NCBI GenBank assembly: GCA_001724265.1
Contig: MEDY01000277.1
Coordinates: 1 to 41,622, forward strand
DNA length: 41,622 bases
Origin: Rhizaria sp. SCN 62-66
Taxonomy: Eukaryota
Reading direction: 5' to 3'
The notes beneath the pieces are model-generated. The model had not been told where the DNA came from and made no database searches. It saw only the letters and a list, made by a program, of their open reading frames with translations. Shown piece after piece: positions 14,455 to 37,116 of the stretch; the first letter of the stretch is position 1, and each line of letters begins with the position of its first letter. The position numbers and the translations under genes were made by a program.

Positions 14455-16197
14455 ATGTTCTACAGCCGTCCGCTCCACGCGTCGTCGCTGCTGTGCGCCG
14501 CACTGCTCGCCCTGTCGGTTCTCAGCGGTTTCCACCTCACCCCAGCCGCCGCCATCCCCACAGTCCGGCACAACCACGCGCCCGGGTACGTTTTTCGCGA
14601 TTAAACAATGCAACGCGTTGCTCCATTAATATAATTACCACATTTCTTGAAGAATTCTTGCGCTCGCACCTTAAATTTTGCATACTCACGCCACAACCAT
14701 CATAACTAACTCCGTCATCCGTTAACCTGTATCTCTCGATCTCTCGCCATCATTCCCTCCACAGCGACCCGATCGTGCGGTCGTACTCGTCGGTGCTGCC
14801 GCCCGAACTGTTGACCGCGCTGACGGCCGAGTGCCACGCCGTGGCGGACCACGACTCGCAGCTGCCGCCGCTGGCCAACGGCAAGTACCGCACGCACTGG
14901 CTACCGCGCGGCCGGCGCCCGCGCTTCGCGGTCGAGGAAGCAATCCACCACCTGCTCAAGCTCGTGCGGCCGCCCGCGGCGACGGTGGGCGCGGAGTGGT
15001 GGGTGCAGCGCGTGGCGCGCGGCGACCGGCGCGCGACGCCGATCGGCTGGCACGTCGACAAGGACGAGGCCGTGGCGAGCCACGACCACTACCTGTTGCA
15101 TCCCGCGCTGGGCAGTATCATGTACCTCACGGACGAGGGCGGGCCCACCGTCATCACCGACCAGTGGTCGCCCCACGGCTCGGGCTACACGCCTGAGCGG
15201 CCGCGTGAGGGCGCCGTGTCGTTCCCGCAGCGCAACAAGTACACCGTCTTCCACGGCGAGCTGCTCCACGGCGTCCTCGCCGCAGACACGCCCGCCGTCG
15301 ACCGCAGCACCGTCTACGCCCACCCGCCCATCGGCGCCTCTGCCGGCAGCGGCGAGGCGGTGGCGACGCGAGGCGCCGCGCAGACGCACCTGGAGGCCGG
15401 CGACGGGACGCGGCTGACCTTCCTAGTCAACTGGTGGAGCGTCAAGCCGCGCGAGCCCAACTGCGTGGAGCTGGACCCGGCCGCCGTGCGCGGGCTTCCC
15501 GTGTGGTCCCGCGCGCAGCTCGCGCAGTTCCGCGCCTCTCTCACGCACCCGCTGCGTCCCGCCGTGGCCCACACGGCCGCCGCCGACAGCCACAACCACG
15601 ACAGCACCGCAGTGAGCGCACGTGCCGCTGCAGGGGGAGTCCCGGCCCCGCTGGCGACGCTGTACAACGACGGCGGCGCCGAGCACGAGATGCGCTACCT
15701 AGACCGCGAGATTGCGCTTGACAGCAGCAGCGCCTCTGAGGGCAATGGCGCGGGCAGCGCGCGGGGCGTCGTGGCGGGAGCGCGCAGGGGCGCGGGCATC
15801 GTGGGCGGAGACGACGTCTTCACGTACTATTTTAAGTACGTTGCGTTTCCGCACCTATCGCAACGTAATCATTTGTATCGTAGCTGTAGCTCACATGTGT
15901 AATGCTATAATCCAATCTCTTATCCTATGTTGTGACTTCGACGTTTCGCGCGCGCTCACCCCTGCATTCCCCCCTTCTGTGTGTCGTTTGCGTTCGTGCG
16001 CTAGACTGCCCGGCGGCATGGCGAGCAGCCTGGTGCTGCCCCGTGGATCACCTGCGGGCTCTACCGTGCGCGTCTTCTGGGACCCCGCGGCCGCGGATGC
16101 CGTCATGGGCCCGCCCCATGCGCGCGCCATCGCCGCGTCCGCTGCGTCCACTGCGGCTGCGGCTGCAAGTCGGGACAGTGGCAAGGAGGAGCTGTGA
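14455..16197 (+). CDS. Secreted/ER-lumenal 2OG-Fe(II) dioxygenase-like protein; exons 14455-14585, 14765-15835, 16005-16197
   Basis: Signal-peptide-like N-terminus (MFYSRPLHASSLLCAALLALSVLSGFHLTPAAA); GAEWWVQ; HxD in IGWHVDKDE; SIMYL; distal His in GELLHGVL; RLTFLVNWW; C-terminus KEEL-TGA. Confidence 0.75.
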
Positions 16198-18613: not shown

Positions 18614-21297
18614 ATGTTTTCGGTATCACGCCGCTTCGCGACCCTGCGCAAGGCCAGCATCGTCGGCAAGTACGCGCCCCCGCCCTCCGCGCCCGCCGCG
18701 GCCGCCACCGCGGCCCTGGCCTCGGCCAAATGGGACGCCGTCATCGTCGGCGCGGGCCACAACGGGCTTATTGCCGCCAACTACCTCGCTGACGCCGGAC
18801 AGAAGGTGCTCGTGCTGGAGCGCCGACACGTCGTCGGCGGCGCCGCCGTCACGGAGGAGCTCGTCCCCGGGTTCAAGTTCTCGCGCGCGTCCTACCTCGC
18901 CGGCCTGCTGCGCCCGCAGATCATCAAGGACTTTGAGCTCGAGAAATACGGGTATGTTATCGCTCTCATTTCTTCCGACTCACTTTATCGCCATTGTTCA
19001 TTCCGCCATCCCTCGTGACTCGCTCTGCCAACAATCTCATATTCTCGTTCTCATCTTGCTTGTTCACACCACGTATGACGATCACAACATCACGTTACAT
19101 GGTTTAGCTTTGAGTACCTCATCCGCGACCCGTCGTCCTTCACCCCCACGCTGCCCGACTCGCCCTCGAAGGGCAAGTACCTGCTCTTGGGCTCGGACGA
19201 CACCGCCACGGCCGCGAGCATCGCTCAGTTCTCTCCCAAGGACGCCGCGGCGTACCCGCGCTACGAGGCCTTTCTGGGCCAGGTCCGCGAGCTCGTGCAA
19301 CCGCTGCTTGACGCGCCGCTCGTCGCGCCCTGGGCTGAGAACCGAAAGGACCGCGCCGTTGCGATGAGGACGGCGCTCACGCTGGCCAAGCTCGCCATCA
19401 AGAACAGGAAAGTGCTCGTGCCGTTCTACGAGCTCCTCACCGCGCCCGCCGCGCAGATTCTCGATCGGTACGCGCAAACTTGCACGCGTTTTGAATCTCT
19501 CCATCACCCCTGTTGTCTCCAAGTGAGACGTGATGTTAGCATGTGATGCATATATAATACCGCTCTACTTCAAATCTCCTTTGCTACATGTTACTCACAT
19601 TTCGAGCTGTTCCTTGTTTCTGTTGTGCTGCTGCCGCAGGTGGTTCGAGGGCGACGTGCTTAAGGCGACGCTGGCGACGGACGCGGTGATCGGCGCGGCC
19701 ATCAGCCCCAAGCACGGCGGCTCCGCCTACGTGCTCCTGCACCACGTCATGGGCGAGGCTGCCGGTCGCAAGGGCGTCTGGGCCTACGTGCGCGGCGGTA
19801 TGGGCGCGGTCACGCAGGCCCTCGCCGCGCGCGCGCGTGAGAAGGGCGTCACCGTTGTCGAGAACGCTGTTGTCGACGAGATCAACTTCAAGTACGTCTT
19901 GCTGGCAAAAAAACTCAAATCTTTCGTTGCATTATTTGTTTTAAGCCTATGTCGTTTTGTCTAATGCTCATCTTGCTATTGTTTTGTTTCTACTTTGACT
20001 TGACCTTATAGCACGACTGCGCCGCGCTTCTATGCGGACCAGGTGTCCCGCGTTGAGGGCGTCACGCTCGCCGACGGCACCAGTACGTTGGACAACATAT
20101 CACACCCACTCTTCGTACATGTGCACTTAGGACTGATAGCAATCCAAACTTATGTTCTAATCATTCAACCAATCTATTACTCTATTATTTACTGTCTTTC
20201 TCGATTTACGCAGAGATCAAGGCCCCCCGCGTGTTGTCCAACGCCAATCCCTACCACACCTTCCTCGAGCTCATGCCGTCCCACCCCTTCCCGGCCGCCG
20301 CCGCCGCCGCCTCCGCGTCCGCGCCCGAGAGCGACAGCGCCCCGCTGCCGACCGAGTTCGTGGACCACGTGCGCCACACCGACTACGCATGTGGCGCGTT
20401 CAAGATCAACTGCGCAGTCGACAAGGTACGTTTGACGCAGTCGCATCAAGCGCCGTTTCCGTGATATATCTTCACCCTATCAACCACTCACACGATTGCT
20501 CGTTTTTGTTGCTTTATGATCTCTTTTCAATTTGTCATCACAGCTGCCGAACTTCTTCTGTCTGCCCAACACGCCCGACGGGCTCCCTGGCCCGCAGCAC
20601 CGCGGCACGGTTCACTTCGAGGACACGATGGAGGACATCGACGCAGCGTACCGCGAGACGCTGCAGGGCAAGCCTGCGTCGCGGCCTGTGATCGAGATGA
20701 CCATCCCGTCCGCGCTCGACAATACGCTCGCGCCGCCCGGCAAGCACGTTGTGCAGCTGTTCATCCAGTACGCGCCGTACGAGCTCACGCAGGGCTCGTG
20801 GGAGGATGAGCAGTTCAAGCAGGCCTACGCAGACTCCATCTTCAAGATCATTGACAAGTACTGGTACGTCAACGTTGTTTATCTTTTCATGTGGCATTTA
20901 TCTTTCTTGTTACACCATTAATTATCCGTAGATCTCTCGAAAACCCAAGTGAATATTGATGTGCTTACATAACACCATAATATCTATTGCCTTCCACTGT
21001 AACTTGTACCCTCGCAGCGATGGCTTCTCCAAGTCAGTCATCGGCCGCGACGTGCTGTCCCCGCGCGATCTGGAGCGCATCTTCGGCCTGCACAAGGGCA
21101 ACATCATGCACGGCGCGCTGTCGCTGTCGCAGCTCGCCGTCGCTCGGCCGGTGCCCGGCTTCGCGGACCACCGCACACCCGTCGCTGGGCTCTACCTCTG
21201 CGGCGCCGGCGCGCACCCTGGCGGTGGCGTCATGGGCGCCGCGGGCCGCAATTGCGCCACCATCGTCCAGAACGACGACAAGTTCTTCGCTAAGTAA
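18614..21297 (+). CDS. PYROXD2: PYROXD2-like FAD oxidoreductase (phytoene dehydrogenase family), probably mitochondrial; exons 18614-18951, 19108-19467, 19640-19891, 20012-20082, 20214-20425, 20544-20863, 21018-21297
   Basis: [82 protein letters not shown]. Arg-rich presequence-like N-terminus. Six frame-preserving introns. Ends TAA. Confidence 0.93.
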
Positions 21298-23172: not shown

Positions 23173-23868
23173 GCGGAAAAAAAAACTAGATTGTCGCAGT
23201 AGTGCAGAATGCAATAACGGGTGGTTAGCGCGGCGGTGAAAGCGTGGACGGAGAGAACGAATAGGATATGACGGAGTGACACGTCGACCTCAACGACGTC
23301 GGTTGCGGGGTTGGGTCATATTTTCGCCGATAGGCGTGTTTGGTGAAGTGCTGGAATTGTCAAAAAAATATGAAAATTCAACTCGCGGCGTATAGTTCGG
23401 GAAACACTCTTCACAGCCTTTAGTGTTGCCCATTTCGACGACGTAAAATGGGAAAGAAATAATCTCGCTCTCTCAACGTCACCCTTCCGTCCGGCCAGTC
23501 GTGCGCTTAGCACCGGCCCTTAGTGGCGAGTGATGCAGTTGGTCGGTGTCGATCGAGAGCACCTACCAACGGGTAAAACAGCACGCGCTCGTTCGGGCAT
23601 GAAAATAGGAACCAGTTCGTCGTAGTGAGACGATAGTATAAGGTTATTTGGTATAATGCGATATATTCCGTCTACTTTGCATTTTAGTTTACCACGAAGT
23701 GTCGTTTCATGTGCGGTATGGAGCTCTGAAGTTCGGCTTGGTTTCATGACTAAGCAACGGCTCTGAAGCCTGCCACCACTATCCGACCCGTTTCACCCAT
23801 GGTCCGCGGACAACTCACGATATGAGAATCATTTTTATATATGCGCACTTCTTCTTCATAGAAACTCG

Positions 23869-26702
23869 ATGGCCGATTTCCAGCGTCCGAACGAGTACGA
23901 CCCTAACCTGATCAAGCAGGAGCAGGCGGCCGCGCTTTCGCAGAAGGCGCTCGCGAACGACATGGACGACCTTTCGTTCGACAACGACCTGCAGAACGAC
24001 AACGGCGCCGGCGCCTCGGGCGCTGCCGTGGACCCTTCTCTCTTCGTGCCCAGCTCCGAGTTCGAGGCCGTCAAGGAGCAGCTCAAGACGGCGAACCAGT
24101 CGCGCGTCAAGGCAGACTACGCGACGCGCAAGGCGGAGGAGCGCATCGAGCAGCTCACGAGCATGCACAAGTCGACGCAGTCGATCCTGGCGCGCCGCCA
24201 CAAGGTGCAGCTTAAGGCACTGCGCACGGAGCTGGATGAGACCAAGGCTCTGCTGAGCAAGGACGAAGACATGATCGCCGCGCTGCAACGCAAGGCGGCC
24301 GGCGCGGCGCCCGAGGCCGGCGACGCGGCCGCGCTCGCCGTTAAGGAGTCCACCGCGCTGCAGCTCGAGCTGGCCGCCGTCAAGGCGCAGCTGGAGGATG
24401 CCGCGGGCCGCGCGCAGGCGTGCGAGGACGAGGCCGCCGAGTACAAGCGCATCGCCGAGGAGGCGCAGCAGCGCCTCACGGCTGCCGAGGCCGCGGGTGG
24501 GTCGTCGTTGGAGCTGGCGCAGCTGCTCAAGCTGCAGGCGCAGATCGACGCCGCCGCGTTCGACCGCAACACGGCGCTGGGCGGCGACGACGACGACGCC
24601 GCCGCGGCCGCCACGAGCGCCGACGACGTAACCGGCAGCGACGCGGCTGGTGCGCAGCTCGCCGTGTCGGTGTTGGCCGAGCTCGACACGCTGCGCCGCC
24701 ACAAGGCCGAGCAGGACGCCCTCATCGCGCGCTTGCGCGCGGCCGCGGGCGGCGCCACGGGCGAGGAGGCCGACGACGAGTCCGCGGCCGCCGCGGGCGG
24801 GTCCTCGGCCGCCAACGCCGCCGCGCTGGTTGAGGCGGAGAAGAAGATCAAGGAGCTCACCGAAGAGCTCACGGTCATGGCGCAGTCGATGGCGACGCTC
24901 TCGGTGGCGCCCGGCGCGTCGGCCGAGCTGGGCACGCTCGGCGTCGAGCTCGCCTCGGCCAAGGCCGCGCTGCGCGCCGCGCAGGCCGACGCGGGCAACA
25001 AAGACGAGGCCGTCAAGAAGTCTGACGCGCTGCTCAAGAAGCGCGAGGAGCAGCTCAAGATGCTCAAGGAGAACGCGCAGGCGAAGCTGAACGAGGCCTC
25101 CGGCTCGATCAAGAAGCTGCGCGCCGAGTACGGGAATCTGCGCGAGGCGTACCAGGCGCTCAAGACGCAGTCCGAGGACAAGGTGCGCAAGCTGCACGAG
25201 CAGATGGTCAAGAACCGCTCGCAATCTGTAGCGGCGCGCAAGAAGGTGCTCGAGGCTATGGCGGGGCAGGTGGCCGCGCTCAAGGCTGAGATGGCCGAGG
25301 TGCGCGGCGGGGTCACCGCGCTGGCGGGCGACAACGCCGGCATTGGCCACGCCATCGTGAAGCAGATCAAGGCACAGACGGGCGCGCAGACGCAGTACTT
25401 GGCGACGCTGCGCGAGAACTACGAGAAGGAGCTCAAACTGCGCAAGAAGCTCTTCAATCAGATCCAGGAGCTCAAGGGCAACATCCGCGTCTACGCGCGC
25501 GCGCGTCCTGTGGCGGAGCGCGAGCGCGCGGCCATGGGCCCCTCGCCCGTGATCAACTTCCCGCGCGAGGGCGAGATCCGCGTCGACAACGGGCCCAAGA
25601 AGCAGTCTCACAACTTCGAGTTCGACCACGTGTTCCCGCCCTCGGCGACGCAGGAGGATGTGTTCGAGGAGGTCCAGGACCTCGTCACCTCGGTGCTCGA
25701 CGGCTACAACGTCTGCATCTTCGCCTACGGCCAGACGGGCTCCGGCAAGACGCACACCATGGAGGGCCCCAAGGACAACCCCGGTGTCAACACGCGCGCG
25801 CTCGACAAGCTCTTCAACGAGGCCGGCGAGAAGAGCGACCAGTGGGAGTTTAACCTCCGCATCACGCTGCTCGAGATCTACAACGAGAAGATCATGGACC
25901 TGCTCTCCGACACTCAGGTATGTCAGACTCCCACGCGTGTCACTTGTTTTCTTCACTTTTCAATGACTCAATGGCGTAAATATCGATTTTCCTTTGCGAA
26001 TTTTTGCTAATTTTGTGTTTAATTCGTTCATATTTTTTTTTTCTCTGCTTTCATTAGGACGTGACGCTCAAGGTCGTGCAGGGCAAGGACGGCATGGAGG
26101 TGCTGGGTCTGACCCAGGTCGAGGTGTCCTCCGCCGACGACGTGCAGCGCAACCTCGCCAAGGGCAAACGCAACCGCCACGTGGCGCGCACAGACATGAA
26201 CGACTACTCGTCGCGCTCGCACCTCATTCTCTCCGTGTACGCCCGCGGCCGCAACCGCATCACGAACCAGACGTGCATGGGCAAGCTGCACCTCATCGAC
26301 CTGGCCGGCTCCGAGCGCATCTCGCGCTCCGGCGTTACGGGCGAGGCGCTCAAGGAGGCACAGAAGATCAACTACTCGCTCTCGGCGCTCGGCAACGTCA
26401 TCTCTGCGCGCGCCAACAAGAACGAGCACATCCCGTACCGCAACTCGATGCTGACGTACCTGCTGCAGGACTCGCTGGAGAAGAACTCCAAGACGCTCAT
26501 GTTCGTCCAGCTGTCGCCCACGCTCGAGTCGGTGACGGAGACGCTGTGCTCGCTGCGCTTCGCCGAGCGCGTGCGCAAGGTCGAGCTCGGCAAGGCCGGC
26601 AAGAACGTCGCGGGCTCGGCCGGCGGTGCCTTCTCCGCGCCCACGTCGCCCGTCGACTACAATGACGACGAGGACGTCGACCCCGACCAGGGCGAGCTCT
26701 AA
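23869..26702 (+). CDS. Kinesin-14 (C-terminal motor, minus-end-directed class) with long coiled coil; exons 23869-25917, 26058-26702
   Basis: Neck RKKLFNQIQELKGNIRV, P-loop FAYGQTGSGKT, switch I NDYSSRSH, switch II DLAGSER, HIPYRNS; ends TAA. Confidence 0.95.
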
Positions 26703-27208
26703 GCGGGCTGCCTTGCGGCGTTGCAGACGACATTGCAGCTGCAATTCATCGCAGTAAAAGAGCGGTGTAAGATATGATATCGAGACTGTACAATGAGCGA
26801 TGCTGCAGTGTCGTGCAGATGGATCTAAGCTTCCTTCTCTCTGCTGTGTGCTCGAAACTCTGCCCGATTTCATTTTTCCTCTTCTGTATCCGACGCAAAT
26901 TTTCTTGTCTATAGTAACGGTGACAGTGACAACATGCGTGTCATGTTGTTGTGTTCGTTTGACTTGTTTTATGATAGGTTGTTTCTGTTTCTTTTCTACT
27001 ACGTCTATAAGCTTCATTTCTCGAAGATGTCGACCATAACAATACACAGTTTGTTTCATTCTATCGCTCTTTTTTGTCATGCTGATTTAATCAACGTTTC
27101 TTTATTGCCGATCTTGCTAGATAAATTTCAAATCTAGGTAACACTCCTTGCCATAACGTTTTTACTTTCGTTGTCGGATTCACACAGGTTTCACACCAAG
27201 GTTTTTAA

Positions 27209-30200
27209 TCATCGTCCATTGTAGCCCACATTGCGTAGTGTGAGATACTCGTACAGCTTCGTCGCCGCTGGTGTCGGCAGCTGAACACGCCACACCCTCA
27301 CAGCCCCTTCACCGCCTGCAGCAGAACTACCACCCGAGCCTGCGCCATTGCTCGCGCCGTTTGTCGCGTTACCGCGGCCGAACACTGCAACGAGCGCCGA
27401 CATCGGCACTTGCAACGTACTATCGTTGTTGTTCAAACTACTCATGTTGACGTTGGGCGACGTCGTGTAGTGCGGGGGCAAAGTCGTGACAACAACGTCA
27501 ATGACATCCTCAACGCGCTCCACCGCAATGACCGCCGTGCGCCGCGCGCCAGAGACAACGACGGAGCTATTGCCTCCAGTCAGTGCGTTCTGCGCGGCAA
27601 CACCGAGATCCTCCCTGCACAGCAGCACCGCACCAGCAAGAGCTACCACAGTGCACTCGACTTCAACCGCGGCGGACAGAGACGTCAGCGCCGGCGTGGA
27701 GCTTGCAAACGCTGTGGTAACTGAGGGCGCAGCTGCAATAAACGGCGAGTGCAAGACTGATAGCAACGGGTTCGAGTGGTGCATCGGCAACAATAACAGA
27801 TCGCGGCCATTAGCAATCTCGCCACTCGAACTCGCACTTGCGTTTGAGCTTACGATTTGGCTCGGATTAGGCGCTAACTCGGCTGCGGCAGCCGCGACTG
27901 CAGCGGCTGCAGATGCCGTCACTGACGCACGGAGACGGCCAAGGTCGACAACAGCTTCCACCGCAGCGGCAACGGCGCGGGAATACAGCCTGACAGAGCC
28001 GCCGCCCACCGCGAGCGCTCCAGCGCTGCCAGCATGGTGTGCGAGCTGAGGCATCACATCCGTCAGCGCGGCGGAGTTCGCGTTGCTGTTGCTGGATACA
28101 TTGCGACCGCCACGGCGCTGGCGCGCGCGCAACGTGGCCGCAGCAGCAGCTGCTGCAATTATGGTAGGGTCGGGGTAGTACGCACCACCACCGCTCTCGG
28201 CAACGCAGCTGCCGCCGGCAGAGGTGACGGTAGGCGCGGATGCAGCGCTAGCGGCTGCGAGCGCAACGAGCGAGTGCAGCACCGGCGCGACGTCTGCTTG
28301 CGCGCTCGACAGAGCGTCGTCTACGGCCGCGACGGCGGGCTTCTGCACAGGCAGCAGCGACGACGCGAGGCGGGTCAGCGCGTGAGTTAACACACGGTCG
28401 CCGGCGACGACAGTAAGGGATGACACGCGCGGCTGCTGCTGCTGTTGCTGCTGTGCTGCCGCGGAGCTGGGGTTCGTTGATAGAGGCGGAAGCCGCGGGC
28501 CGGGAGACTCCGTGAAGTCGATGCGGACAGACTGCAAAGCACCACCGACAACCATGCGGTTGAGTGCCTTGACTGGCAATGCGGAGACAAATACGAGCCG
28601 CTCACGATCGCCCGAAGTGATGTCATTCGTCGACTGCTGAGATGGTCGTTGTTGCTGCTGAGTAGAAACAGTGATGCGACGAAAGACAAATATGTCATAC
28701 TCCGTCGCAAGCAGAAGTGCAGGATACGTTGTAGTCAGTGCGTGCTGAGTAACATCTGCAGCTGCACCAGCTGACGCGGCGGAGCGCCGCCAATCACAGT
28801 CGAAGAACACACATCCCTTATCTTCACGATTCGTTTTTTTGCCACCAGCTGTCGCACTCCTGCCTTGAATTGAGCTATCAAGACTCGGATCACTCTTAGA
28901 AGCAATCATCACATTAGTTACTGCAGTAGCAGCGCAAGCAAACGCAAAAGCAGTGAGTGCGGGTACTGGCTCCGATGGTTCCTCCGCAGCCCTCAGCCCT
29001 TGCGTCACAGGATGCACCGCAGCGTGCTGATGCATCATGACATCACCATAAAGTACGCCACCAACATCCACGTTGTTCACAGCAAGCCCAGCCGCGCTGG
29101 CCATGGAACTAGCGCCGACAGATTGCGGGTACGCAAGACCGTGTGCACCAGCAGTGCCGGGAGGCAACGTGAGTCCCGCTGCGGCGGCGGCCTGAGCCAT
29201 TGCAATTGCGTCCTCCTCGGCTGCTGCGGCAGCGGCTGCTGCCACCGAGACCGCTGATGACGCAGTGGTGTTGCCGGTGGTTGCGGCAAGGTTGTTAGGA
29301 TCAAGACCAGATGTTGAACCACGCCTGCTGCCGCCGCGACTACCCGGTCGGCTACTGCTCGCAGCCACATTAGAGCCTGTAGCGTTGATGCTGCTCTTGC
29401 TAGTGTTGTCCTTTTCTTTGTCCTTGTCTTTGTTGCTAGTGCTGCTGTGAGCAGCCATTGCAAGGCGCAGACGGGCTGAGGCTAGAGCGAGAGGGTCCTC
29501 TGCCAGCCTGCACCGCAGGGCTAACAAAACCCTCTCACCAAACAGAGTCGGCAGCACAACTGGCGCTGCACTAGCGGCGTCTCGCTCACTACTGCTATGA
29601 GCGGCTGCGATGGCGGTTGCAGCAGTCCACCATTCTGCAGCACGCGCAGCTGGATTGTAGGCGAACCAGCGGTAGTTGCGCGCACCACCAAGGCCGTCGG
29701 CGTCTGAGCGACTAGATTCAAAACGCAGGTGAGACGATCGCAAATTAGATGCTTCGTTAACACGAGGGAGCTCATTATTCACACTGTTTGAAGCTGGAGG
29801 AGAAACAAATGGAAGCCACGGAAACAAAGCAGTGGGCGCACTGGCAGCGGCTGCATCGGCTTCAGCTGCAATCTCGAGCTCGACTTCGGCAGTTGGGCGC
29901 GGTGTAGGTAACATCGGTTGCAGCAGCGGACCATGCGGTCGTAGTGATTGAGAGATTGCATTAGTCGGCCCAACTGACGCCACAGCGGACTGAACCGACT
30001 CGCTGTTCATGCTGTTGTAGAGGGACTGAACCCACTCGGTAGTGTAGGTCTGCTGCTTGACTTTGGGGATGACTCTCCCCATTCCACAATTGTTTCTACG
30101 AATGGCATCATGCCTTTCAGTGATACTACCGTTTCGTTTAGCCTTGGCTTGCTGATTTTTATCCGTCGCAGCGACTAATTTCGTCAACATCTGCGCAATC

Positions 30201-33200
30201 GCAGTAGCTTGCGTCCGCGAGAGCGACACTAGTTGTTTCTGATTCCCACTCGCACCTACGCTCCCAGATACACCACTGTTGATGGCGCACGTGCTGATGT
30301 TACCACTGGCTCCATTGTTGCAGTTACCAGCAAGCGCTGCCCATGAGTCGCGCAGCGCATCGACTGCGATCTCGGCCGCTACAATGGCGCGCGACGCCGC
30401 CACAGCTGGGGTGGACGGGTAGCCATTCGGGGCAGGGCCTACCCACGAATATACAGAGTTCGTGGTGTCGTAAGCAGAATAGCACGAGTTCTTTGTAACA
30501 GCAGAGAGTGAGGAAAGGAGTAACGACTCTGCAAACCCGCGCCCAACGCGCATGCGCACGCCGCTGCCCAGTTCCGCAGCGCGTGCAATTGCCGTCGCGG
30601 TCTCCACTGCACACGCGCGCGCCGCTGCAAGAGCAGTGGCGCGGGAAGCCGCTGCAGAAAGCGCAGCAGCGGCGGTGCGGCGGCGCGATACTGCAGCAAC
30701 AGAAGTCACTGTTGCAGAGTTATTGCTCATACTCGCGAGGCTGGGGCTCGGACTGCGGCTGGGGCTTGCACTAGCACTGGAGCAGGTGATTGCACCCATG
30801 CGGGGGCTGGGACACGGACTTGGACTTGCACTCGGGGCAGCGCTCGTGCTATGCTGGGCTAATGGTGCAGTAGTCGTTTCAGGCACTGACACAGCGAGGT
30901 CAACAAATGCAGGGATATCCGGGATAGCCGTTCCATTCAGCGAGGACAGGTTGAGGCGCAGCCGCAAAACAAGACGCGTAATCATATTCGCCACATTCTT
31001 TGGGCACGTTGCAACCTCAGTTCCAATAGCCAATGATGCTGGCGCTTTTGAATGCAAAGCACTCACAAAGCCAGTCTTGAAAGATACAGGTGCAGCACCT
31101 GAGAATCCAGAAGGGTTGCCAGTCACGAGTTGAGTTTCCTCAGGGTCAAACGACGTGTTGCCGTCATTGTTATCAGTAGTGATCGTCACTGTTTCGACGC
31201 TGACTCCAGTCACGGGCAACATCACAACAGGTGTTGCATTCTCCTGACCGTTTGCGCTGGCGCTCGCATTGGCTCCAGCGGGTCCACTACCCCAGTGCTC
31301 GGTTGCACCAGGATATGATGCAGCGACAATGCTCAGCACACCGCGCTCTAACATTGCAATACCACCGGTGCCATAAACACTTGGAACAGTGGTAGGAGGT
31401 GGATCCAATGGGAGTTCGGCAGAAAGTAACGCAGCCTCCGCTACAGCACGATCGACAGAGCCAAGACGAGCCGCAACACCGCCAATACTTAGACCTCCGT
31501 TCGTGTTACTAGTCAAATCTGCGTTAGCTGCAGTTGACGCTGTCGCAGCATATGCGCGAAGTACGGCCGCAATAGGATCCTCAAGGTGGCCGTGGCCGTT
31601 GGAGGACGTCGCGGTGCTCTCAGAGTCAGCAGCAACAGTGCCAAGAGTAGGAGCAACCGATGCTTGGGAAAGAGAGAATGATGTCGCGCGTGATGTTGAC
31701 AAAGACGAGGCACGTGACCGTGGCATTGCGTCAAACGCACCCATCGGCAATACATCATCATCGATAGTACCACTATCATCGCCGTCACCATCAGTTTCAC
31801 CGCCGCGCCACCTATTCTCACCATTACCGTGACTGCTGGTGACCGTGTCGCGCCGCCTCGCGCGCTTTCTAGCCGTTGCAGCAAGCGCGACAGCGGCGGC
31901 GTCGGCTTGGAGCGCAGCGACCGTGGCAGATGCCGCTGTGAGCAGAGACGCCGCTGCAACAGCAGCCGCGCCCGCGCCTGCACCAGGGCCGTACTCAGCT
32001 GCAGCAAGCCATCGGTCGAAAGCAATGTCCGGGTCCCGCGCCGCTGCTGCGGCAGCAGCAGCAGCAGCGGCCGCAGCAACACTAGAGCCCACGCCGGATG
32101 TACCAGAGCTTTGCACATTCGAGAACTGTGCAATGTAGGCGTCGACCTAAGCGTCAGTCGGAACTGGGACTGAGAGATATGCGCAGTAAGGAACATTGCC
32201 ATCATGACCCTCTGAAGTCTTGCTGTCATCACCCATCTTCGCAGAATGGGTGTTATTGTTAGCAGCCGCAGCAACGTTGTTCTGGGCGAAGCTTGTGTCT
32301 GCAGTGCTACTGCTGCGCAAGAGAGTACCCGTGCCAGCAGTTGTGACAGGCCCTGTCACGGGAGACATGGTGACAGCAGATGCAGACTTGCGATGAGTTG
32401 CTTTACTCGCACTCGCGTTTACACTGCGATTAGCTGCAGTAGCGTCACCACCAGCTGCCACGCCTGGTGTCTGCTGCTGCAGTTGCTGTTTAGGTTTGCG
32501 TCTAGGAGTCGCCGGTGGCGTCGTAAACGGGTTCACGCCTTCATGCACTGTGCTCACAACATCGCCTGTCGTGCCTGCATTCGCTTCAAGACCGGATTCA
32601 GGGGCGTTGATGATCGCCGTGGGTGCCGCACCTTCGATCGTCGCAAGTCGAGAGCGACGGGGCTTTGAGCGCACTGCACTGCCAACGCCAGGACTTGCAG
32701 CGACTAATCCTGGCTGGGATACTGACGACACTGCTGCCCCAGAAACCGCTGGAGTAGCGTTGAGGCGAGAACGAGGGTGCTTGGGAGGAGGCGAATTGAA
32801 TCCAGCAGGGTGCGCTGCGGCGGCAACAGAAAGTGGAAGCGCCGATATGTCACCTGCGTGGAGATCAGAGACTTCAAGAACCGTGCCACGCGCTGTCATT
32901 GTCTCAAGACATTGCTATGCAGTCCCCTTGTAATTGTTGTAGGCATCTACAGTGCTTGCATCAGAAAATGACGGCATGGTTGAGCCAAGAAGACATGCGC
33001 GAAACGCATTGGCAGCGGCAGCAGCAGCGGATGCAAGCGCTGGTGCTTGCGCACGCAATGTTGCAGTATCCTCAGGAAGCTCCGGCCACCAGACTAGCGA
33101 CGCTGGTGGCGATAGGGCTGTTGCAATAACCGTACTGATGCTGGCATTGCTCGAACCGTTTGTGTCCGGAGTCGGTGCGGTCAACTTGAGGCCCTGTGCT

Positions 33201-35869
33201 TCGAATGCAAGCGCCAGTGCGCGAGTTGCAGCAGGCGCGGACACACCCGCCACGGACGTAACACCGCTAGCATGTTTGCCGGTGCCGGAGACTACAGAGA
33301 TAGGCGTTGGCCATGCTGTTGTTGCCATGCCACCTCCAGCTGCCTCTGCTGCAGCCGCTGTCACACGCCACCACACACCGTCGCTGCTTGCAGTCGCAGC
33401 GTGCGCGGTGGGGTGTGCTGCGTTCGCTGACTGCGTGGTCATACTTGCTGCGTGGTGCACACGCACGCGCACGCGTCCCAGCGCGATGCGGAGCGAGGAA
33501 GCTACAAGAGCAGCAGCGCGCAGCTCACCCGCTGTCGCAGCAACACCGTCCAACACAAAGACGGGGCGCGGGCGACGGCCGGCAACGGTGACCAGAGGTA
33601 CCGAGGCTGAATTAGCACCCGTTGTGACGCCGCAGCAGCATAGTTGAGAGAGCTCGACAGCGTGAGTGGCCGCGTTCGCAGCAGTATTGATGTTATTGTA
33701 GCGGACAGCATTGCTGCGGCGACGCTCACAGCCGTTGTTGACAACCGTACTGATCGGTACAACAACGTAGTTAACGGTATCAGACAGATCTGTGTTTTCG
33801 TTGTCATGTGCGTTGAGACACCGCCCGCAGTCACACCCACAGCACGCTTTCGACAATGTGCGCGCAGTCTCCGTGCTGAACATCAGAGGCGCTGCGTTTG
33901 CGTCACTTGTGGCTACCAAGGTCTCGTTGTCGTCACACCCGTCATCGTTGCAGTCGGAGTCATCGTCATCATCATTACCGCTGGCATTCTCGATATGAGT
34001 AGAAGAGACGGCAATGCGCGATGCTTGAGCGTTAGCCGCCGCAGATTTGTTCATTCCAGCAGCGCCCACGTTTGAGGTCGCGCCGAGGCCAGTTGACACC
34101 GAAACTGCAGGCCACCACCCTGCATCGTCGCCGCCCGTACCAGCGCCGCCGTTGTCGTCGCCGTCGGAGCCAAACCAGAACGCGGCCTCTCCACTGTTGC
34201 CGTGGTCATACTTGCCACTACCGTAGCCATCATCGTCATCGTCACCGTCGTCATCGTTGTTGCTCGAGGTGGGGCCGGACCAGCCGCGCCATCCAGCACC
34301 GCTGCTGCCGCTGTTTCTCCGAGTCCCAGCAGCCTTACTGGCGGCGGCAGCAGCGGCGGCTGCTGCAGCGGAGAGCCGGAACAGCGGCGCACCGGTACCC
34401 TGTTGCCCCTGCGCCAACAGCCTCATCTGCGGACCGGCGCCCGCAGCGCCCGCGGCAGCGCTGGCAAGCGCCTCCGCCTCGCCCGTGCCGGTAGCCGCGG
34501 CCGCGGTGGCGGCGGCGAGGTGTCGCGCCCACGCGTCGTGGCACAGCGCCAGCACGTGGACGCGGTAGTGGCGTCCCTCGCTCACGGTCACCGGGCAGCC
34601 AAGGAGGCTCAGTGAGCGCAGACGGCGGCAGAGACGGAGGGGCCACAGGGACTCGAGCCGGGCGATTGGGTTGTCGGACAAGTTAAGCCGCCGGAGGTGC
34701 GGAAGAGCCCAGAGCCCATGCGCGGAAGTAAGCCCACACGACGCAAGCGACAGAGAGCGCAGGCGAGGAAAAAGAGACGCCAGAGGCGTTGGCAGCGGGG
34801 CGGGAACCGGAAAGCCCCCGAAAGCTTCTAGCGCATCAGTAACAGCAACATTATGGTTGTCTTCGATTCCGTTGGTTTTAGAGTTCGTGTTCGACTTCGT
34901 GACCGATGGCGAAGAAGCTAGCACCGTCGACGTCGCCGGTCCCAGTGGCAACGGCAGCCGCGTGTGCGACAGGTCGATCGCGGTCAAGTGCGGGAGCGTG
35001 ACGAGCCCCTGCGCGAACGCGAGCCCCGCGCCGCGCAGGCAGAGCCGCCGCAGCGCAGGCAACAGCGCGCCGACAGTGGGCGGGAGCGCGGTAACCCCAG
35101 TTGCCGCGGTCAGAGTGAGCGAGCGCAGCACGGGCCAGGGGGTGAACGCGCCGCCCCCGCTCCGGCTGCGCGCGCCGAGGCCGTGGCTGGAGCTGATGAT
35201 GCTGTTGCTATTGATAGTGTCAGCGGCGTCGTAGTCGTCGTCGCCACCGGGCGGGACAGTGAGCAGCGCCTCCAACGCCGCCGCGCCGGTCGCAGCGGCA
35301 CCGCTGCCGACGCCGTGGGAGAACGAAAGCGGAACGGAGAGCACGAGGGCACGGAGCCGCGGCCGCAGCGGAGCGAGATGAGACAGAAGTGAGATGTCAC
35401 CTGATCGCAGCGAGAGCCGCAATAGGCGAGGAAACAAGGCAAGAGGGACCGGAGCAACCGTGCCTGCAGCCACAGGTGCAAGCGCATCAGACGGTGTAAC
35501 GAGGAGTGCTGCTGCGTGAGCTTGGAGCAGCCGCAGGAGGGTGAGGAGCGCGGCCGTGTCGGGGTCGGCGACGGACGTGGCGGGGGGCAGCGCCGCGAGC
35601 TCTGTGGCCGAGGGTACACGGCCTAACAGTGCGCGACAGTGCAGTGTAAGGATGGATAATGTGCGCGCAGAGAGAGCGACCGACAAGGCGTGGGCTGTAG
35701 AACGTGTCGCTGATGTGTTCGTGAGGTTTAAGTATGAGGACGACGTCGACGTCGAACTAGTCTCAGCAACTGCAATGCTTCGAGTCAGCGCCGTATTGAT
35801 GAGCTCAACAAGCTCCACCGCGCTGACAGATGCACCCAAAGACGCAACACGCGGTGGGGCGCTACTCAT
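27209..35869 (-). CDS. STK11IP: STK11IP (LIP1)/nischarin-like LRR protein; single 2887-codon frame containing two in-frame TAG codons (32917-32915, 32149-32147)
   Basis: N-terminal LALFPRLLRLSL..PWPVLRSL, LRRs (LTAIDLSHTRL, LRSLSLASCGL, LRRLNLSDNPI, LRSLSLLGCPV..HYRVHV) and FVLDG. C-terminal LLLATEYDIFVFR..LNRMVVGGALQSVRIDF..GDRVLTHAL resembles the STK11IP C-terminal PH-like region. The three ORF-track ORFs are all in the same frame. Ends TGA. Confidence 0.7.
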
Positions 35870-36600
35870 ACCGCGCCGGTGAAAACACGCGCTCTGACGC
35901 GGTAGGGCGGTCGTGATTGAGGGAGGGGTGTCAACTCTGGTCGAGCGTAAGTTAAGCGGTCTAAAAGAGAGGATTAACAAACAGCACAGAAAATAATATC
36001 AAAACACGACACGTTTAGGAAACATTTGATGCTATTGCAGACACATACACTCAATTTGTCGATCGGAGTTTTGAGATATCTTGAGTTCCGATTTAGGCCC
36101 CGAACGGCTCGTACTGCCTCGACGCCAAGCCGCACATCTTTTTTGACTGCAGATCTCTTGAACTCAACAAAATCGGTGTTGATGATGCCATCATTGAAGT
36201 ATCACATTAAGTTAACTTGAAGTTAATATTTCGTAGACTGGTTTGTTTCATAAGCCTTCATACACCCTCTCTGCCGCAGTCTGGTAAGGGTATGCAACTT
36301 TTTCATCAGCATATCACTGCATCTTGAGGTGGTACCCACAACTAAAGCTTGATTCTGCAAGGATGTTACACGAATATGTGATGACAGATATCGTACTGTA
36401 CGCGTCGCACACCTGCGTTCAAACGTACTTGGTGCCCACAAGCGCTTGTCGTCGCCGAGGAAGCGCAACCCTTCCATCCACAAGAAACATGTTAAATTCT
36501 CGGTAATCTATTTGCAAAGAAGAAACCTGTTCAATCTCTACGTGAAGTGCATGCGCATTTATTAGATTACCTGATTAATTTTATGTTCGCTACTTTATAG

Positions 36601-37116
36601 ATGACATCAAGCGGGTCGAACCGACTTGAAGTCGTCAGTCATGACATTACCCGCACGTCGTTTTCTGTGCTCCTGGCGTTTCTTCTATTCGCGTGTTCGT
36701 TTCTATTTTTGCTTCCATCAGCAGCACTCGCTCAACGCCCATCACGCCGTGCGCCTATTATGACAGCTGACGTTGTGTACTTATACAGCATCTTCGGCCG
36801 ACGCATGCGCCGTCAGTTAACTCCAGAGCAGTTCAAGGAGTTCACATATCTTCGCAACACCCTTTCGTGCCGAGACTTCGAGTGCGCTCCTGCATGCGAG
36901 GCCCACGCAGTCAATTTTGGATGCCCACGCTGCATTGCTGAGTGCGCCAAGGATCGGGTTCACGCAAGGAACGTGGAGAGGCTGCGCGCTTACGTACGTG
37001 AGGAGAAAGAGGCGGCTGCACGGGCTGCACAGGCTGCAGCAGAGGCGGCCGCGGCACGCGCAGCGGCAAACACTACAGCAACATCACCAGTCACATCCCA
37101 TCATACACACGCGTGA
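36601..37116 (+). CDS. Small hypothetical Cys-rich protein, probably secreted or membrane-anchored
   Basis: 171-aa ORF with a hydrophobic stretch (FSVLLAFLLFACSFLFLLPSAALA), a six-Cys cluster and an Ala/Glu-rich helical tail; ends TGA. Confidence 0.6.
   Translation: MTSSGSNRLEVVSHDITRTSFSVLLAFLLFACSFLFLLPSAALAQRPSRRAPIMTADVVYLYSIFGRRMRRQLTPEQFKEFTYLRNTLSCRDFECAPACEAHAVNFGCPRCIAECAKDRVHARNVERLRAYVREEKEAAARAAQAAAEAAAARAAANTTATSPVTSHHTHA

Follow-up and report, generated by a model that had tools for sequence, protein, structure and literature searches.

Two in-frame TAG codons in a 2887-codon gene of an uncultured protist: recent nonsense mutations or decoding of UAG?

A metagenome contig of 41,622 nucleotides (nt) filed under Rhizaria sp. 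SCN 62-66 (MEDY01000277.1, assembly GCA_001724265.1; the whole stretch is hereafter called the window) carries on its minus strand a very long gene, here the giant gene, whose reading frame is interrupted twice, both times by TAG. The question raised by this locus is whether the two TAGs terminate translation, so that the gene is being lost, or whether UAG is a rarely used sense codon in this organism, as had been proposed from the letters of the DNA without any database search (the sequence-only reading). Our tentative preference, held at somewhat less than even confidence, is for recent nonsense mutations under the standard genetic code. The features on which the question turns are the following.

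27209 to 35869, minus strand: whole reading frame of the giant gene, from ATG at 35869 to TGA at 27211-27209, 2887 codons including the two in-frame TAGs.
32915 to 32917, minus strand: TAG1, codon 985, context ACT GCA TAG CAA TGT, with an ATG 5 codons later.
32147 to 32149, minus strand: TAG2, codon 1241, context GAC GCT TAG GTC GAC.
32150 to 32914, minus strand: segment between the TAGs, 255 codons, seemingly disordered, rich in S, T, P, K and R, with a GC content at third codon positions (GC3) of 0.46 and without family match.

The locus was described as three open reading frames (ORFs) sharing one frame, with the two TAGs as sole interruptions, and both the ORF listing and the translation agree with this. 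Three stop-to-stop ORFs of the minus strand adjoin one another in a common frame, namely 32915..35998 (1027 amino acids, aa), 32147..32914 (255 aa) and 27209..32146 (1645 aa). When TAG was read as X over 27209-35998, the translation comprised 2930 steps, of which 1028 and 1284 were X, and it closed with one TGA; no TAA, further TGA or frameshift was encountered inside this frame. The claim that the 8.66 kb are free of such lesions therefore stands, as do the count of 2887 codons, reckoned from the ATG at 35869 with the stop included, and the printed contexts of the two TAGs, which are identical letter for letter. The alternative two frames of the same stretch contain 76 and 143 stop triplets, and approximately 42 in-frame stops are predicted from the position-specific base composition of the giant gene itself. 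Because of these numbers, the open frame is far beyond chance and is maintained, or was until very recently. Upstream of the ATG lies a likely intron of the 5' untranslated region (window 35962-36428, minus strand; GTACGT at 36428, acceptor ...TTTTAG at about 35962), which is preceded by a 21-codon upstream ORF starting at 36490.

The three pieces also resemble each other in composition. The GC contents at first and second codon positions (GC1/GC2) are alike, with 0.65/0.61, 0.64/0.61 and 0.63/0.60, respectively. No AT-rich spacer is found at either TAG, where the local GC content is 0.53-0.55, compared to 0.43 for the non-coding DNA of the window, while all other gene boundaries in the window fall to 0.31-0.49 GC. 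Since the frame and GC1/GC2 are the same throughout, no AT-rich spacer intervenes and the C-terminal part is conserved to its end (see below), the giant gene is, or until recently was, a single coding unit across both TAGs, and on this point the sequence-only reading is supported. It was also right that this gene has the weakest GC3 bias in the window: its GC3 is 0.57 (0.65, 0.46 and 0.55 by piece, with 0.8-0.9 in the leucine-rich repeat (LRR) part alone, 34350-35250), against 0.76-0.96 in the neighbouring genes. The second exon of a kinesin gene only about 500 bp away has a GC3 of 0.96, and regional base composition cannot account for the contrast.

The encoded protein has recognizable features on both sides of the TAGs.

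34550 to 34768, minus strand: best-scoring LRR stretch, with LRR cap, residues 368-440 of the N-terminal ORF; local GC3 0.8-0.9, as in the neighbouring genes.
27212 to 29680, minus strand: conserved C-terminal region, downstream of both TAGs, aligning with the 771-aa protein P0002 up to the last residues.

The N-terminal part matched the generic LRR families LRR_4 (E = 1.8e-10) and LRR_8 in Pfam, and its LRRs had ANP32, U2A' and DRC3 as nearest PDB sequences. A HMMER search with the C-terminal 1100 aa against 1.84 billion representative proteins returned a single match, P0002 (E = 5.9e-43), and no annotated protein. P0002 is a metagenome protein fragment encoded on a 3699-nt JGI contig; it is C-terminal and does not extend to the TAG sites. 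Its alignment with the giant gene proceeds in blocks to the protein end (EPSEPVPA, FFD.DW, PALLLA, LTVV..DR.L.HALTR, GRDLLLL and RVWR..LP). Because this orthologue aligns block by block to the last residues, the stretch downstream of both TAGs is genuine conserved coding sequence, and it belongs to a rare lineage-specific family. The TAGs themselves both lie in low-complexity, non-conserved linkers, and the sole orthologue fragment does not cover them.

The gene had been called STK11IP-like, with LRRs and C-terminal motifs flanking the TAGs. The flanking arrangement holds insofar as the motifs at 28730-28375 fall within the blocks conserved in P0002, whereas the STK11IP identity found no support: a search of the protein in four pieces with hmmscan gave no STK11IP-specific Pfam family even at E <= 10, yielding generic LRRs and one chance domain of unknown function, and three sequence searches returned no named homologue. 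Further searches for relatives were equally unproductive. Pfam gave no match for the segment between the TAGs, and homologue searches in the near length range gave none for the whole protein or for the N-terminal 560 aa, although the latter search can miss the query itself, because its 90% cluster representative is a 137-aa fragment outside the length window. Scans of metagenome contigs with the target protein and the P0002 alignment, and of genome and viral contigs with exon 1 of the kinesin gene, were without match; the scanned collection seems to be a subset, as P0002 and a 250-aa ORF of the giant gene are recorded from JGI/IMG yet were unmatched. Comparison with a protein atlas gave a best score of 0.76, which is below a useful level, and a PDB profile search with the C-terminal region gave a chance match alone (E = 0.15). 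Finally, an AlphaFold2 model of the C-terminal 830 aa from a 2-row alignment was unusable, with a mean predicted local distance difference test score (pLDDT) of 31.4.

Both TAGs are real DNA and not assembly errors. Logan contigs of four runs were aligned to window positions 23500-36500, bearing in mind that contigs drop rare variants. A 1927-nt contig of run X3, from a different study, covers 31443-33369 and spans TAG1 and TAG2 with 0 differences. A contig of run X4 (32123-33040) bridges TAG1, also with 0 differences; it ends 24 letters past TAG2 and was not counted for that site. Moreover, exact look-up placed the 984-aa ORF that TAG1 closes and the 250-aa ORF that TAG2 closes on 7 contigs each; these come from JGI/IMG, Logan and ENA and reach up to 207,920 nt. 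A 137-aa JGI gene call has the identical end at TAG1. It is this independent contig spanning both sites without differences, together with the gene calls on 7 contigs each, that removes assembly error, which the sequence-only reading had proposed to exclude by mapping reads. No alternative base at TAG1 or TAG2 occurred among the differences listed in the contig alignment, in which rare variants are lost.

If UAG were a sense codon, genes in the window would not be expected to end in it, and the terminators of 13 window gene models were therefore tallied. TAG was used 0 times, TAA 5 times and TGA 8 times, at the following positions.

TAA: gene A, 4579; gene B, 8094; gene C', 10866; a six-intron gene, 21297; the kinesin gene, 26702.
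TGA: gene C, 12243; gene D, 12891; gene E, 16197 (spliced, ...KEEL); Rab-like gene F, 16970 (...CNC); gene H, 22111.
TGA, continued: the giant gene, 27209; a small Cys-rich protein, 37116; gene K, 41072.

Two of these 13 gene ends are backed by C-terminal motifs, the 'CNC' of the Rab and the '...KEEL' of gene E. The tally was chosen as a test after the finding had been made; it could have spoken against UAG decoding, and with n = 13 it is small. Normal use of TAG as a terminator, which had been named in advance as an observation that would refute a sense UAG, was not seen in the window. The letters GC come next after seven of the 13 stops, behind TAA in four cases and behind TGA in three, suggesting a favoured context for termination; the letters after TAG1 are CA and those after TAG2 are GT.

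Inside genes, TAG occurs in frame nowhere among the 5606 codons of ten neighbouring genes or exons, so that the window holds 2 UAG per approximately 8500 codons, both in the giant gene. In-frame UAG in many genes and at conserved positions was not seen within the window (two UAG, one gene). In the giant gene itself, TAG was observed 2 times against 19.7 expected, an approximately 10-fold depletion, TAA 0 times against 10.9 and TGA 0 times against 11.7, while the counts of TAC, TGG and GAG came close to the expected ones and those of CAG, TTG and AAG deviated by no more than twofold. TAG is thus avoided in this gene almost as strictly as TAA and TGA and is not a freely used codon, and its depletion alongside the other two means that it was selected against as a stop over the history of the gene. 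The proposal that GC3 bias explains the rarity of TAG in other genes is weak: with G as its last letter, TAG would not be suppressed by GC3 bias alone. The restriction to TAG is in turn weak evidence of anything special, because the chance that two random nonsense mutations in the giant gene are both TAG, calculated from its codons, is P = 0.22.

In the reading that we favour, the organism would use the standard code and the two TAGs would be recent nonsense mutations, fixed in a nearly clonal population. The gene hit would be very long, lineage-specific, mostly disordered and weakly expressed, consisting of an N-terminal LRR part, long linkers and a conserved C-terminal region. With translation halted at codon 985, the product would be an LRR fragment of 984 aa at most, and the 1900 codons beyond would form a remnant so young that TAA, TGA and frameshifts have yet to accumulate in it. 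That the TAGs are recent and terminate translation is what we infer for a gene that is otherwise one continuous coding unit. Loss of function explains the rarity of TAG, its depletion in the giant gene, its non-conserved positions and its absence elsewhere. The giant gene is moreover a likely candidate for loss, with a GC3 near the GC content of non-coding DNA, one relative in 1.84 billion proteins and LRRs as its only Pfam matches. Comparison of X4 with the window listed at least four differences in the giant gene (27913, 28891, 28895 and 31675), all downstream of TAG2. Three of the four listed change an amino acid and one is silent, but the sites lie in poorly conserved stretches and n = 4, so that they give a weak hint of relaxed constraint.

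Several observations weigh against a loss of function. The absence of TAG among 13 terminators has a probability of P = 0.055 if TAG normally made up 20% of terminators, of 0.12 at a share of 15% and of 0.01 at 30%. The low GC3 together with the intact frame speaks for long-term maintenance of the ORF rather than long decay: a fall in GC3 from about 0.9 to about 0.5 takes many substitutions and the frame is still open, so the low GC3 is long established in a gene on which codon selection is weak. The same TAGs are present in assemblies of at least three studies dated 2015-2025, on 7 contigs, and no intact allele was seen, though contigs can hide rare variants. RNA-library contigs lie on either side of the TAGs, which shows merely that the locus is probably still transcribed; none of those listed crosses TAG1 or TAG2, where cover is thin (bins of 0.36-1.46 in run X6). 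Loss of function must accordingly accept as chance both the missing TAG terminators and two nonsense hits without a frameshift in 8.66 kb, and the lack of any frameshift, TAA or TGA beside these two hits requires a very young event.

The best-surviving alternative, which we regard as possible though doubtful, is that UAG is decoded organism-wide, fully or in part, by a suppressor tRNA-CUA and/or an eRF1 that reads UAG poorly, so that the full 2886-aa protein is made. UAG would then be a costly and very rare codon, tolerated in weakly selected genes and purged from gene ends. A possible form of this, held with the same reserve, is an early, 'nearly unassigned' stage of UAG decoding or efficient suppression genome-wide, with UAG gone from gene ends and almost absent inside genes. 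Such decoding explains why the frame is intact, the C-terminus conserved and TAG missing among the terminators, at the price of assuming a nearly unassigned codon. It is favoured by the terminator tally, by the fact that nothing but TAG interrupts a frame of 2887 codons, intact in all other respects, the C-terminal part of which is conserved in a relative, by the identity of the TAGs across independent assemblies and by the lack of any intron signal that fits TAG1 or TAG2. The organism also belongs to an unplaced lineage, the best matches of its kinesin being metagenome proteins of 62-66% identity.

Precedents exist in the rhizarian exLh (UAG = Leu), for which 384 in-frame UAG in 71 genes are given, and in Iotanema spirale (UAG = Gln), with 204 in 126 genes; UAG terminators are absent from both, genes ending in UAA or UGA, and within exLh the lowest use of UAG is in genes of strong codon bias such as those for ribosomal proteins (PMC5304391). 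Against these stand the 2 UAG in some 8500 window codons, confined to one gene and to non-conserved sites, and the depletion of TAG in a gene whose synonymous sites are otherwise near mutational equilibrium. No nuclear code known to us uses a reassigned UAG so rarely. ARAGORN found no tRNA gene in the 41.6-kb window, nor was any Rfam family found there; eRF1 is not among the genes of the window, and 13 terminators are a small sample. The standing given here to decoding and to loss of function is a matter of judgement and not of computation: we started from a prior of about 10:1 for a nonsense allele over a nascent code change, took the terminator test to count approximately 8-18 fold toward decoding, and let the strain differences count approximately 2-3 fold back.

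What remains, namely readthrough, an atypical skip of the TAG-bearing segment, a hidden intact allele and artefact, is unlikely even when taken together. Gene-specific readthrough would leave the standard code in place, with both UAGs leaky and some full-length protein made beside the 984-aa product. TAG1 is followed by CAA, and UAG-CAA is a classic leaky context in tobacco mosaic virus and yeast. TAG2, however, is followed by GTC, which to our knowledge is not a leaky context. For the 120 nt behind TAG2, folding is better than that of shuffled sequence (z = -2.43), but this stems from a self-complementary GCN poly-alanine run, and the 118 nt after TAG1 are without structure (z = 0.25). As losses multiply over two successive stops, readthrough appears very improbable, and the argument that had been made against it from the TAG2 context and from two stops in series is a reasonable one.

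Removal of the TAGs from the message has to be judged against the introns of this organism. Twelve introns were modelled, one in the kinesin gene and 11 in the six-intron gene (18615-21297) and genes C', E, H and K. All start with GTAYGY and end with YAG, four of them with TAG; most measure 118-170 nt, with one of about 220 nt in gene C', and their GC content is approximately 0.34-0.46, while GC3 of the exons is 0.76-0.96. No GTAYGY donor lies near TAG1 or TAG2, the only one in the giant gene being at 27420. Tiny in-frame introns ending at the TAGs (36 nt; 18-24 nt) were considered and rejected, since their 5' ends (GTAGAT, GTTCCG and GTCCCA) are not GTAYGY and known introns have at least 118 nt. 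A larger segment is bounded by a direct repeat.

32938 to 32950, minus strand: first copy of the direct repeat, 13 nt, encoding VDAY, 21 nt upstream of TAG1.
32134 to 32146, minus strand: second copy, 13 nt, encoding VDAY, immediately after TAG2.

The copies (family D7) are identical at 11/13 positions and spaced by 804 nt, exactly 3 x 268, with both TAGs between them, and the whole protein has VDAY at two places only, one 8 residues ahead of TAG1 and one immediately behind TAG2. If these 804 nt were skipped, either as an atypical GT..AG intron or exitron (GTAGAT...TTAG) or by excision of DNA, both TAGs would be removed and the protein rejoined in frame as ...DAST|VDAYIAQF...; the segment would begin with GT and end with TAG, as four of the modelled introns also do. 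The repeat may, however, be due to chance: 9 families of direct repeats of comparable size are present in the same 1 kb, and VDAY was downgraded as a signal for this reason. In addition, the donor GTAGAT departs from the consensus, the length of 804 nt and GC content of about 0.57 are unlike the introns of 118-220 nt and 0.34-0.46 GC, and over its 255 open codons the segment retains the periodicity of coding sequence. No such joint was found among the 15 joints listed out of 66, in a region where RNA cover is thin. Only a very slim chance is left to this skip. As for sequencing or assembly errors, or three adjacent genes that merely share a frame, the origin of the window as a metagenome contig and the ATG 5 codons after TAG1 might suggest them, but this reading is largely refuted and scarcely credible, as independent contigs and gene calls reproduce both TAGs, no AT-rich spacer is present and the three pieces do not differ in base composition by codon position.

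The window derives from a bioreactor or wastewater metagenome, and the organism is an unplaced, GC-rich, intron-bearing eukaryote that is widespread in wastewater reactors. Its kinesin-14 gene (C-terminal motor; 23869-26702, plus strand) contains an AT-rich intron of 140 nt, GTATGT...TTAG (window 25916-26057). A cDNA contig of 1997 nt from run X8 lacks precisely this stretch and shows 0 differences. The precise absence of the intron identifies a eukaryote with conventional splicing and means that run X8, labelled 'probably DNA', holds cDNA of this organism. The same contig extends 264 nt beyond the kinesin TAA, which sets the minimum length of the 3' untranslated region. Named kinesin matches were Mesostigma (58%), Trypanosoma brucei (54%) and Hondaea (49%), no nearer than fishes, and a trypanosomatid or Blastocrithidia-like origin was rejected because conventional introns are frequent. 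Runs X4 and X6 contain contigs approximately 90-95% identical to the kinesin gene (24183-24540 and 26102-26345, plus strand); the intervals between the differences are mostly divisible by three, so that these look synonymous. The same reactors seem to house a sister species or strain.

Other genes of the window offered observations of their own. In gene E (window 15836-16197, plus strand), a 169-nt intron, GTACGT...GCTAG, leads to a spliced protein ending in ...GKEEL, which we take to resemble a signal for retrieval to the endoplasmic reticulum; unspliced, the ORF would seem to end in TAA at 15902. The small Cys-rich protein (36601-37116, plus strand) has 171 aa, a GC3 of 0.49 and no Pfam match, and its TGA is directly followed by TAA. 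A JGI variant of it, P0128 (172 aa), has W in place of this TGA and then stops, a stop-codon polymorphism backed by the tandem stop. The six-intron gene (18615-21297, plus strand) looks by eye like an oxidoreductase binding flavin or nicotinamide adenine dinucleotide (FAD/NAD), though three single exons compared with Pfam at E <= 0.01 gave no match.

The two leading readings differ greatly in what they would mean. If the TAGs are nonsense mutations, the giant gene is an ordinary dying gene of an uncultured protist. If instead UAG is decoded, this would be a new and independent UAG-only nuclear code change, one of very few outside ciliates. It would be unusual in that UAG hardly occurs in either role, stop or sense codon, and could then represent a living intermediate of reassignment. 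Codon-capture and ambiguous-intermediate models predict such an intermediate state, which is rarely seen. The organism is present at useful depth in several public runs, and a 207,920-nt contig of it is available in public assemblies.

Compared with known systems, the giant gene resembles STK11IP/LIP1 in having N-terminal LRRs with a cap, a long linker and a conserved C-terminal region, but differs in lacking the specific Pfam family and any named homologue in the searches above. It shares with the leaky UAG of the tobacco mosaic virus type the CAA after TAG1; unlike there, however, the full CAR-YYA is absent (CAA TGT), the context of TAG2 is different, the extension amounts to 1900 codons behind two stops, and no consistent downstream structure follows the TAGs. 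Young unitary pseudogenes and loss-of-function alleles are similar in showing nonsense codons in a long, fast-evolving, weakly expressed and lineage-specific gene that is otherwise intact, while two nonsense hits without frameshift or other stop in 8.66 kb, in a neighbourhood without TAG terminators, set the giant gene apart from them. With exLh and Iotanema, finally, it has in common that the in-frame stops are UAG only and that UAG terminators are not seen (0/13 here). In contrast, the UAGs of these two lineages often stand at conserved Leu or Gln positions, whereas here 2 UAG were found in 13 genes, both in one gene, non-conserved and approximately 10-fold depleted (PMC5304391). That the established UAG-only codes use UAG far more often (PMC5304391) is one of the points in favour of loss of function for the giant gene.

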